Positions 6,903-7,209 of a stretch of 64,000 nt of DNA are shown one piece after another. The notes under the pieces are model-generated. The model worked only from the letters and a program-made list of their open reading frames with translations. It was not told the DNA's origin and ran no database searches. Location: IMG/VR virus record IMGVR_UViG_3300045988_086557; one strand, 5' to 3'. Both the position numbers and the translations under genes were made by a program. Within the stretch, counting starts at the first letter, position 1, and every line of letters starts with the position of its first letter. The stretch comes from a virus.

Positions 6903-6979
6903 GCTCGAGTGGGCTAATTGGTATAGCCGTCAAGCTCAAACCTTGATGTTTGTGAGTTCGAGTCTCACCTCGAGTACCA
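6903..6979 (+). tRNA. tRNA with anticodon CAA (decodes UUG) but class-I body (5-nt variable loop); isotype uncertain
   Basis: acceptor GCTCGAG/CTCGAGT, D stem GGCT/AGCC, anticodon stem TCAAG/CTTGA loop CTCAAAC, variable TGTTT, T stem GTGAG/CTCAC, A73-CCA. Confidence 0.6.
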
Positions 6980-7122
6980 AAAGCCTCAGAATCGTGTAGA
7001 TTCATGCCTCTTTTTTTATTATAGCTAAAAAAATGCAAACCTAATTGGGCTATAACCAATTAGCTAAAGAGTTAGGGGTTTTCTTTAGGGTAGAGCCACC
7101 GCCTTAGATCGTGGCATTATAT

Positions 7123-7209
7123 GTGAACGTAGCCAAGTGGATTAAGGCCCCGGTCTGCAAAACCGTGTGACCCAAAAGGGCGTGGGTTCGAATCCCACCG
7201 TTCACTCCA
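7123..7209 (+). tRNA. class-II (Ser-like long variable arm) tRNA with anticodon GCA (Cys codons) and U73
   Basis: acceptor GTGAACG/CGTTCAC perfect, 3-bp D stem with long D loop, anticodon loop CTGCAAA, variable arm GTGACCCAAAAGGGCGT as in tRNA-Ser, T loop TTCGAAT, U73-CCA. Confidence 0.65.

Follow-up and report, generated by a model that had tools for sequence, protein, structure and literature searches.

A 64,000-nucleotide (nt) stretch of phage DNA (IMG/VR record IMGVR_UViG_3300045988_086557, analysed at its full length and called the window here) carries two neighbouring transfer RNA (tRNA) genes that have exchanged the usual shape of their family for another. The first, tRNA(CAA), lies on the plus strand at 6903–6979 and has a leucine anticodon on a class I body, and the second, tRNA(GCA), lies on the plus strand at 7123–7209 and has a cysteine anticodon on a class II body. 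With a probability of about 70%, both function as tRNAs and carry the amino acid of their anticodon, and only the variable region was remodelled. tRNA(GCA) would be a cysteine tRNA that kept U73, the GCA anticodon, and a cysteine-type acceptor stem and D arm, with the 4–5-nt variable loop replaced by a short hairpin. tRNA(CAA) would be a leucine tRNA that kept A73, A14, A15:U48, and G18-G19 and lost its long arm. Both genes belong to recurrent phage variants. In the literature, for which coverage was incomplete so that absence is unproven, no description was found of a class II tRNA-Cys with a 7/5 cloverleaf or of a phage class I tRNA-Leu.

Outside organelles, the rule that long variable arms are restricted to leucine, serine, bacterial tyrosine, and selenocysteine tRNAs is treated as nearly universal, and both annotation and isotype models lean on it. 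Cysteinyl-tRNA synthetase (CysRS) and leucyl-tRNA synthetase (LeuRS) both belong to class I, whose members generally bind the tRNA with its variable region toward the solvent, and an arm could thus be gained or lost without a change of identity. Both tRNAs are presumably charged by the CysRS and LeuRS of the host, as judged by E. coli determinants, which may not be those of the host.

Structure of tRNA(GCA)

tRNA genes were called in the 64-kb window with ARAGORN and the Rfam tRNA model RF00005 (gathering score 29 bits). ARAGORN found four genes, all on the plus strand, and all four reached 56–61 bits on the Rfam model against the threshold of 29. tRNA(GCA) scored 56.2 bits (7123–7206; E = 2e-9 for the window). 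The gene is 87 nt long with an encoded CCA, and its ARAGORN cloverleaf has a 7/5 arrangement of acceptor and T stems, a 3-bp D stem, an 11-nt D loop, the anticodon GCA at 7157–7159 (reading UGC and UGU), and a hairpin variable arm at 7167–7181. The arm (GUGACCCAAAAGGGC) folds into a CCC/GGG stem with an AAAA loop, and the stem has three pairs, or four when a G-C pair that spans a bulged A is included. An initial annotation, made from the letters of this DNA, had described the class II shape with GCA, U73, and the 3-bp D stem, and the cloverleaf agrees with it except for the arm, which is 15 nt long instead of 17.

The discriminator at 7206 is U73, the main identity base for CysRS, and U73 together with the GCA anticodon forms the major CysRS determinants (PMC9976931). 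tRNA(GCA) has both of these features of the tRNA-Cys family and lacks the class I shape with a 4–5-nt variable loop, which is a habit of the family and no known CysRS determinant.

In the 12 closest long-arm relatives, every helix including the variable arm still pairs, and compensatory changes were seen at 11 pairs. The stem of the arm is kept in these relatives, with a C-G pair turned into U-A in L060 and into U-G in L066 (L numbers denote loci fetched for comparison). A C27.U43 mismatch is present in the anticodon stem of tRNA(GCA) (7149/7166). The same unpaired 27:43 position, either C.U or C.C, is kept in 11 of the 12 long-arm cysteine tRNAs of the window clade, and C26 and G44 may pair next to it.

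Cysteine or serine identity of tRNA(GCA)

A comparison set of 80 related phage loci was gathered via the DUF2828 protein encoded downstream of the tRNAs. In these loci, the tRNA closest to the DUF2828 gene is usually a tRNA(GCA) with U73, whose length ranges from 71 to 87 nt, comprising ordinary short-arm forms, intermediates of 77–80 nt, and hairpin-arm forms of 84–87 nt. The tRNA(GCA) of the window is identical to the 80-nt cysteine tRNA of L020 at 68 of 80 positions (85%), including the complete T arm (17/17) and nearly all of the acceptor strands (6/7 and 7/8). It shares 60 of 76 positions with the 76-nt cysteine tRNA of L067 and 57 of 86 with the serine tRNA of the phage itself. When the variable region was removed and the anticodon masked, the nearest sequences were cysteine tRNAs with variable regions of 4, 5, 7, and 14 nt (0.76–0.94), and the best serine tRNA reached 0.73. 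tRNA(GCA) would thus share its lineage with the short and intermediate cysteine tRNAs that occupy the same site in related phages.

The cysteine tRNA position turns over fast, because the neighbouring leucine gene is identical in the window clade and in L005/L006, while the cysteine gene is 87 nt long in the former and 77 nt in the latter. L067 (76 nt, 4-nt variable region) and L079 (87 nt, 14-nt variable region) have the same 5' 26 nt and nearly the same 3' ends with different middles. A donor of the variable arm was not found: each of the co-resident serine, leucine, and tyrosine tRNAs reaches about 75% identity with tRNA(GCA), and nothing points to recent recombination. Over the data set, the best matches of variable arms fell on serine, leucine, and tyrosine tRNAs in 24, 23, and 14 cases and gave no single origin.

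tRNA(GCA) might instead be charged with serine, alone or beside cysteine, by a seryl-tRNA synthetase (SerRS) that reads the long arm, which would place serine at some cysteine codons. This is improbable, even though parts of the molecule do look like tRNA-Ser. Compared with E. coli tRNA-Ser(UGA) (serT), the anticodon stem agrees at 9 of 10 positions, the D arm at 14 of 19, and the variable arm at 7 of 14. The acceptor strands, however, agree at only 3 of 7 and 4 of 8 positions, and overall identity is 57/86 (66%); the near-colinearity with E. coli tRNA-Ser proposed by the initial annotation therefore holds for the D arm, anticodon stem, and variable arm and not for the acceptor stem. The D arm, which had been called serine-type (GCC AAGUGGAUUAA GGC), is likewise the one seen in the consensus of short-arm cysteine tRNAs from phages (model R1, described below). 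For this comparison, E. coli cysT and serT were taken by coordinates, and BLAST of both window tRNAs against E. coli genomes gave no match at that database size. A BLAST search of tRNA(GCA) against cultured phages returned almost only tRNA-Ser genes. A true serine body with a GCA anticodon also exists: an Acidobacteriaceae metagenome-assembled genome (L171, 628-kb contig) has an 88-nt tRNA at about 4915–5002 with this anticodon, a GGAGGAA acceptor strand, and G73. Judged by these features, it is a genuine serine-type body with a cysteine anticodon, in contrast to the phage type.

The identity bases speak against serine. SerRS determinants are the size of the arm, G73, and acceptor pairs (PMC9976931). 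U73 was found in 52 of 55 distinct long-arm tRNA(GCA) and in all 21 short-arm ones, and the near-universal serine pair G2:C71 in only 8 of the 55. Among distinct phage serine tRNAs, G73 is present in 56 of 71 and G2:C71 in 60 of 71. The window tRNA(GCA) has G1:C72 followed by U2:A71, and it has neither the G73 of bacterial tRNA-Ser nor the set of G1:C72 with G2:C71. Its close relatives have C2:G71, a pair that acts against E. coli SerRS (PMC9976931). The arm differs as well, since phage serine arms are 15–22 nt long with stems of 5–6 bp in 34 of 43 cases, whereas long-arm cysteine tRNAs mostly have arms of 13–14 nt whose 3-bp stems often end in a GNRA-type tetraloop. With 15 nt, the arm of tRNA(GCA) reaches the lower end of the serine range, but its stem of 3–4 bp is shorter than that of most serine tRNAs. 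Finally, no serine tRNA comes nearly as close to tRNA(GCA) as do cysteine tRNAs with shorter variable regions.

Codon use at UGY and UUG

Cysteine codons (UGC and UGU, UGY) make up 1.6% and UUG makes up 1.1% of 17,651 codons, which is unremarkable. The anaerobic ribonucleotide reductase NrdD (54898–57111) has UGY codons at the catalytic cysteine of the MGCRT motif, at a second conserved cysteine, and at the C-terminal CxxC...CxxC zinc site. The listed protein relatives of this enzyme are all at least 85% identical, and the codons were checked by alignment to structures in the Protein Data Bank; all of these sites align with cysteine in the solved NrdD structures 8p23 and 9d3x.

Codons were also compared with homologues of at most 75% identity for the DUF2828, vault-like, RlaP, and phosphoesterase proteins. 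UGY codons of the window stood mostly opposite cysteine, and the replacements at variable sites were glycine, tyrosine, alanine, and histidine, not serine, which argues further against serine charging, as do the essential NrdD cysteines. UUG codons stood opposite leucine or opposite methionine, isoleucine, or valine. A wholesale reassignment of UGY or UUG was ruled out by codon frequencies, homologue alignments, and the NrdD cysteines.

The leucine tRNA without a long arm

tRNA(CAA) scored 59.8 bits on RF00005 (6903–6976; E = 2e-10 for the window). The gene is 77 nt long with an encoded CCA, and its cloverleaf has the anticodon CAA (reading UUG) at 6937–6939, a 5-nt variable loop UGUUU at 6947–6951, A73 at 6976, and a G1.U72 wobble at 6903/6975. 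The last U of the variable loop is U48, the partner of A15. The ARAGORN cloverleaf bears out the earlier description of a class I shape with a 5-nt variable loop and A73 together with a leucine anticodon.

This form recurs in cultured phages. BLAST of tRNA(CAA) found full-length matches of 73–82% identity, all annotated as tRNA-Leu and 72–78 nt long, in the Mycobacterium phages Wildcat, EniyanLRS, Cosmo, and MrMagoo, the Shigella phage Silverhawkium, and the Cellulophaga phage phi19:1. Wildcat has two arm-less leucine genes, and in Silverhawkium all three leucine tRNAs (UAG, CAA, and UAA) are 77–79 nt long. Phage records in GenBank routinely label such genes as tRNA-Leu. Over all loci fetched, 42 of 184 distinct leucine tRNAs have at most 77 nt up to N73.

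An alignment of 22 class I leucine tRNAs has 98.4% of its cells paired and shows compensatory changes at 18 of 20 pairs. A14, A15, G18, U48, and A73 are invariant and G19 is nearly so. The only invariant anticodon base is A35, and the anticodons belong solely to leucine boxes (CAA, UAA, UAG, and AAG). A73 is present in 27 of 27 short and 98 of 100 long phage leucine tRNAs. G1.U72 occurs in 17 of the 22 arm-less forms and in 35 of 100 long-arm phage leucine tRNAs, and the only alternative seen is G:C. tRNA(CAA) therefore has the A73, A14, A15:U48, and G18G19 of bacterial tRNA-Leu and departs from that family in the long variable arm. E. coli LeuRS needs A73, A15-U48, and G18G19, the long arm is dispensable, and truncated tRNA-Leu is still charged (PMC9976931). 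Some arm-less leucine tRNAs share their 5' half with long-arm leucine tRNAs (e.g., L083 with L063), which fits an arm loss from a normal leucine tRNA.

Spread of long-arm cysteine tRNAs

The pattern GGTCTGCAAAACC-N16-30-GGTTCGAATCC was used to search for long-arm forms. It matched 73 viral contigs, and all matches were called tRNA-Cys(GCA) with a length of 82–91 nt. An earlier viral pattern with the exact anticodon stem and arm of the window gave no match, as the database copy is one base off (CCGCG for CCGTG). The long-arm form is common in phages and not the majority, because a short-arm control pattern gave at least 120 matches. In cultured phages in GenBank, no close match to a typical long-arm cysteine tRNA was found.

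Across 185,579 species of bacteria and archaea, each represented by a single genome, the long-arm pattern matched 15 times. Eight of these matches lie in arrays of 8–26 tRNA genes within at most 8 kb, and a further one, an 84-nt long-arm tRNA-Cys that has U73 and CCA, is flanked by the minor head and scaffolding genes of a prophage on an Anaerococcus sp. chromosome (L163, 2430–2513). The contig of one match is as long as a viral contig in IMG/VR. Two of the 15 are of other kinds, namely the serine-bodied tRNA of L171 and a 96-nt selC*-like tRNA-Cys in L159 (about 7310–7405), which looks quite unlike the window tRNA.

Long arms were also seen in threonine, lysine, methionine, asparagine, aspartate, tryptophan, valine, glutamate, glutamine, and glycine tRNAs of phages (L018, L033, L077, L083–L085, L087, L089, L103, L107, L137, L160, L217, L257, and others). 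Several of these isotypes keep their usual discriminator, such as G73 in asparagine and aspartate tRNAs, G73 with A1:U72 in tryptophan tRNAs, and U73 in glycine tRNAs. Acquiring an arm may be common to phage tRNAs in general.

Two other features were noted in related phages. tRNAs with the four-base anticodon 'taaa' in an 8-nt loop (ARAGORN) are present in L062 (387–460), L063 (313–386), L066 (369–442), L075 (2263–2336), and L076 (390–463) and could be quadruplet decoders or frameshift suppressors. Phage tmRNA genes lie inside the tRNA arrays of L016 (1380–1679), L018 (2949–3258), L051 (1570–1869), and L055 (2312–2660).

Comparison with known tRNAs

The nearest described relative of the window cysteine tRNA is selC* tRNA-Cys, some members of which are cysteinylated (PMC5389517, Mukai et al. 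2017). Both have U73, the GCA anticodon, and a long variable arm. The selC* tRNAs, however, are defined by an 8/4 arrangement with a bulge and by long D and anticodon stems, and they come from anaerobic bacteria with a link to a selB-like gene, whereas the window tRNA is a phage tRNA with a 7/5 arrangement and a 3-bp D stem. Allo-tRNAs and other serine-identity tRNAs with non-serine anticodons (PMC5389517, PMC7609411) likewise combine a long arm with a foreign anticodon, but they have SerRS identity (G73) and 8/4 or 9/3 stems, in contrast to the U73, the missing G2:C71, and the 7/5 arrangement of tRNA(GCA). With E. coli cysT, it shares U73, GCA, G15, the A13/A22 positions, and the 3-bp D stem; the difference lies in the variable region, a 4-nt loop in cysT and a 15-nt hairpin arm in the window.

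For the leucine tRNA, the nearest analogues are animal mitochondrial tRNA-Leu and engineered minimalist E. coli tRNA-Leu constructs, which are arm-less and leucylated via A73, A14, and core tertiary pairs (PMC9976931); the window tRNA has the same features and would be charged in the same manner. These analogues are organellar or engineered, whereas the phage form is natural. It was seen in phages with hosts among the Actinobacteria, Proteobacteria, and Bacteroidota, in most cases with a G1.U72 pair.

A phage tRNA with a variable region different from that of the host is also known from phage T5, where the distinct variable loop of tRNA-Tyr resists the PtuAB/retron-Eco7 defence nuclease (PMC13096335). 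The T5 tRNA keeps its structural class, whereas both window tRNAs switch class, and no nuclease is known for cysteine or leucine tRNAs here.

Genomic setting and neighbouring genes

The window has a G+C content of about 35%, and nearly all genes lie on the plus strand. A gut or rumen origin of the phage is a guess. The remaining two tRNA genes, both on the plus strand and called by ARAGORN and Rfam, are a canonical class II tRNA-Ser(UGA) with G73 (5331–5418), which served as internal comparison, and an amber suppressor tRNA(CUA) with U1.U72 and G73 (6072–6147). In-frame TAG codons are present in many genes (76 in total), several open reading frames (ORFs) at 1007–4621 are intact only with TAG read as sense, and the nearest GenBank match of the suppressor tRNA is in Phage Phass-1, filed under 'Caudoviricetes code 15 clade'; for these reasons, the phage is TAG-recoded. 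Residues opposite in-frame TAG in relatives were most often glutamine (10/27). The TAG codons cluster in a subset of genes (420–4621, 29692–31101, 38336–39247, 46317–48068, and 59573–60556). The stretch at 6680–6740, between the suppressor and the leucine tRNAs, holds a long imperfect hairpin (GCGCGGAAGA...TCTTCCGCGC) with a T run behind it. No Rfam family matched it, and it may act in termination or in RNA processing.

Directly downstream of the tRNAs, the plus strand at 7453–17944 encodes proteins with domains that Pfam ties to RNA repair. They comprise a DUF2828/DUF7788 protein (7453–8973), an 811-aa major-vault-protein (MVP)-like protein (9385–11820), a cREC_REC domain protein (12428–12748), an RlaP nucleotidyltransferase (13166–13966), a metallophosphoesterase (13959–14717), an RNase T-like exonuclease (15507–16322), and an RNA ligase (16673–17944). 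The DUF2828-type protein is 100% identical to that of IMG/VR contig 3300045988_080502. A vault-like protein is unusual in a phage. Because of these RNA-repair-type domains, the genes adjoining the tRNAs suggest a conflict over the integrity of RNA, plausibly of tRNA. In the unrelated, FelixO1-like Shigella phage Silverhawkium, the DUF2828/vWA gene gp88 adjoins a 25-gene tRNA array (L156, 1–14 and 180–4781), and the pairing of a tRNA array with DUF2828 thus recurs across distant phages. Further downstream, possible NAD salvage genes were noted, encoding an isochorismatase-like (nicotinamidase-type) protein (18190–18726), a phosphoribosyltransferase/phosphoribosyl pyrophosphate (PRPP)-synthetase-like protein (18710–19543), and a 529-aa protein (20438–22027) that, read by eye, is a candidate nicotinamide phosphoribosyltransferase.

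Y RNAs serve Ro proteins and offer a model for a tRNA-like ligand outside translation. By analogy, one or both window RNAs might act mainly as decoys for host anticodon nucleases or as ligands or substrates of the DUF2828, vault-like, or RNA-ligase gene products. The position of tRNA(GCA) as the last gene ahead of the DUF2828 gene, both in the window and in many relatives, the RNA-repair-type genes directly behind it, and the DUF2828 gene that flanks the Silverhawkium array are in line with such a role. It is nevertheless unlikely, as both RNAs keep full synthetase identity sets, 7-nt anticodon loops, CCA, and cloverleaf covariation, and many relatives have an ordinary short-arm cysteine tRNA at the same site. 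Other long-arm cysteine tRNAs lie beside a DUF2828 gene at only one of the 73 viral loci, and Rfam found no Y-RNA-like or other family near the DUF2828 gene beyond the four tRNAs at E ≤ 5.

That the unusual shapes reflect pseudogenes in decay or errors of prediction, as the C27.U43 mismatch in tRNA(GCA) and the G1.U72 wobble in tRNA(CAA) might indicate, is very improbable, given Rfam scores of about twice the gathering threshold, compensatory changes in all helices, a leucine gene that is identical across phages whose DUF2828 proteins share only 80% identity, and the conservation of both irregularities themselves (11/12 and 17/22).

Isotype models and weight of the evidence

A comparison with isotype models, proposed along with the first description of the two genes, was made through home-made approximations. 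Three anticodon-masked covariance models were built from phage tRNAs together with E. coli cysT and serT, for short-arm cysteine (R1), serine (R2), and long-arm leucine (R3) tRNAs. tRNA(CAA) scored 63.1 bits on R3, 54.6 on R1, and 32.8 on R2. Of the three, it thus fits the leucine model best, in agreement with its anticodon, though R3 must delete the whole arm. The serine tRNA(UGA) of the phage reached 92.0 bits on R2, of whose training set it is part, 57.6 on R3, and 52.9 on R1. The suppressor tRNA scored 64.8, 56.4, and 44.7 bits on R1, R2, and R3.

Several points weigh against the view that both tRNAs carry the amino acid of their anticodon or that their shapes serve the phage. For tRNA(GCA), the masked models do not separate cysteine from serine: the near tie of 64.9 bits on R2 and 59.8 on R1 (44.9 on R3) would arise because the serine model gains from the arm and the cysteine model pays for the insertion, and the slightly higher serine score is in line with serine charging. 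The models are also weakly specific, as the glutamine-like suppressor scores 64.8 bits on the cysteine model, and they were trained on phage tRNAs labelled by anticodon, with a small cysteine set of only 19 sequences. The model test alone therefore does not settle the cysteine case. E. coli SerRS ignores the anticodon and reads mainly the long-arm shape, with G73 as only a moderate determinant (PMC9976931), so that tRNA(GCA) may be charged with serine to some extent. The identity rules come from E. coli and may differ for the synthetases of the host. The test at cysteine codons is partly circular, because relatives also use UGY, so that only the NrdD sites are independent, and these exclude wholesale reassignment and not low-level misincorporation. 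A long-arm cysteine tRNA lies beside a DUF2828 gene at a single viral locus of the 73, with no link outside the phage lineage of the window, and the anti-defence rationale taken up below rests on analogy and gene neighbourhood.

On balance, the lead idea of the initial annotation, serine at cysteine codons or another substitution at UUG, was not supported. The identity bases (U73 in 52/55 and G2:C71 in 8/55), the nearest relatives, which are cysteine tRNAs with short or intermediate variable regions, the UGY codons at NrdD cysteines, the UUG codons at leucine, methionine, isoleucine, or valine, and the fit of tRNA(CAA) to the leucine model all speak against it. The modest fallback offered at the same time, namely simply divergent cysteine and leucine tRNAs, gains support from identity bases, kinship, codon use, and the leucine model score.

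Implications for phage tRNAs

If only the variable region of these tRNAs was remodelled, the change may help phage tRNAs to escape host toxins or nucleases that read this region, by analogy with known cases, or it may equally be selectively neutral. An adaptive reading of the loss and gain of arms is reasonable, as there are published cases of the variable region as a target. The toxin MenT3 prefers long-arm tRNAs of M. tuberculosis (PMC7450476). More tentatively, phages might switch the class of their tRNAs as a counter-defence or as a tag that tells phage from host tRNAs, adding an arm to cysteine tRNAs (sometimes to threonine, lysine, methionine, asparagine, aspartate, tryptophan, and other tRNAs) and removing it from leucine tRNAs with identity kept. 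Class-switched tRNAs would then evade PtuAB/Septu or MenT/AbiE-type enzymes that read the variable region or the shape of the tRNA.

The window locus and the families found through it show phages breaking the long-arm rule both ways with the synthetase identity bases kept, which bears on the tolerance of CysRS and LeuRS toward the variable region. It also bears on the annotation of phage tRNAs, as such genes can be mislabelled as serine tRNAs or flagged as mismatched. The short natural cysteine hairpins and the natural arm-less leucine tRNAs are ready material for tRNA engineering. For the phages themselves, the two genes bear on whether the variable region is a battleground of phage tRNAs and tRNA-targeting defences.

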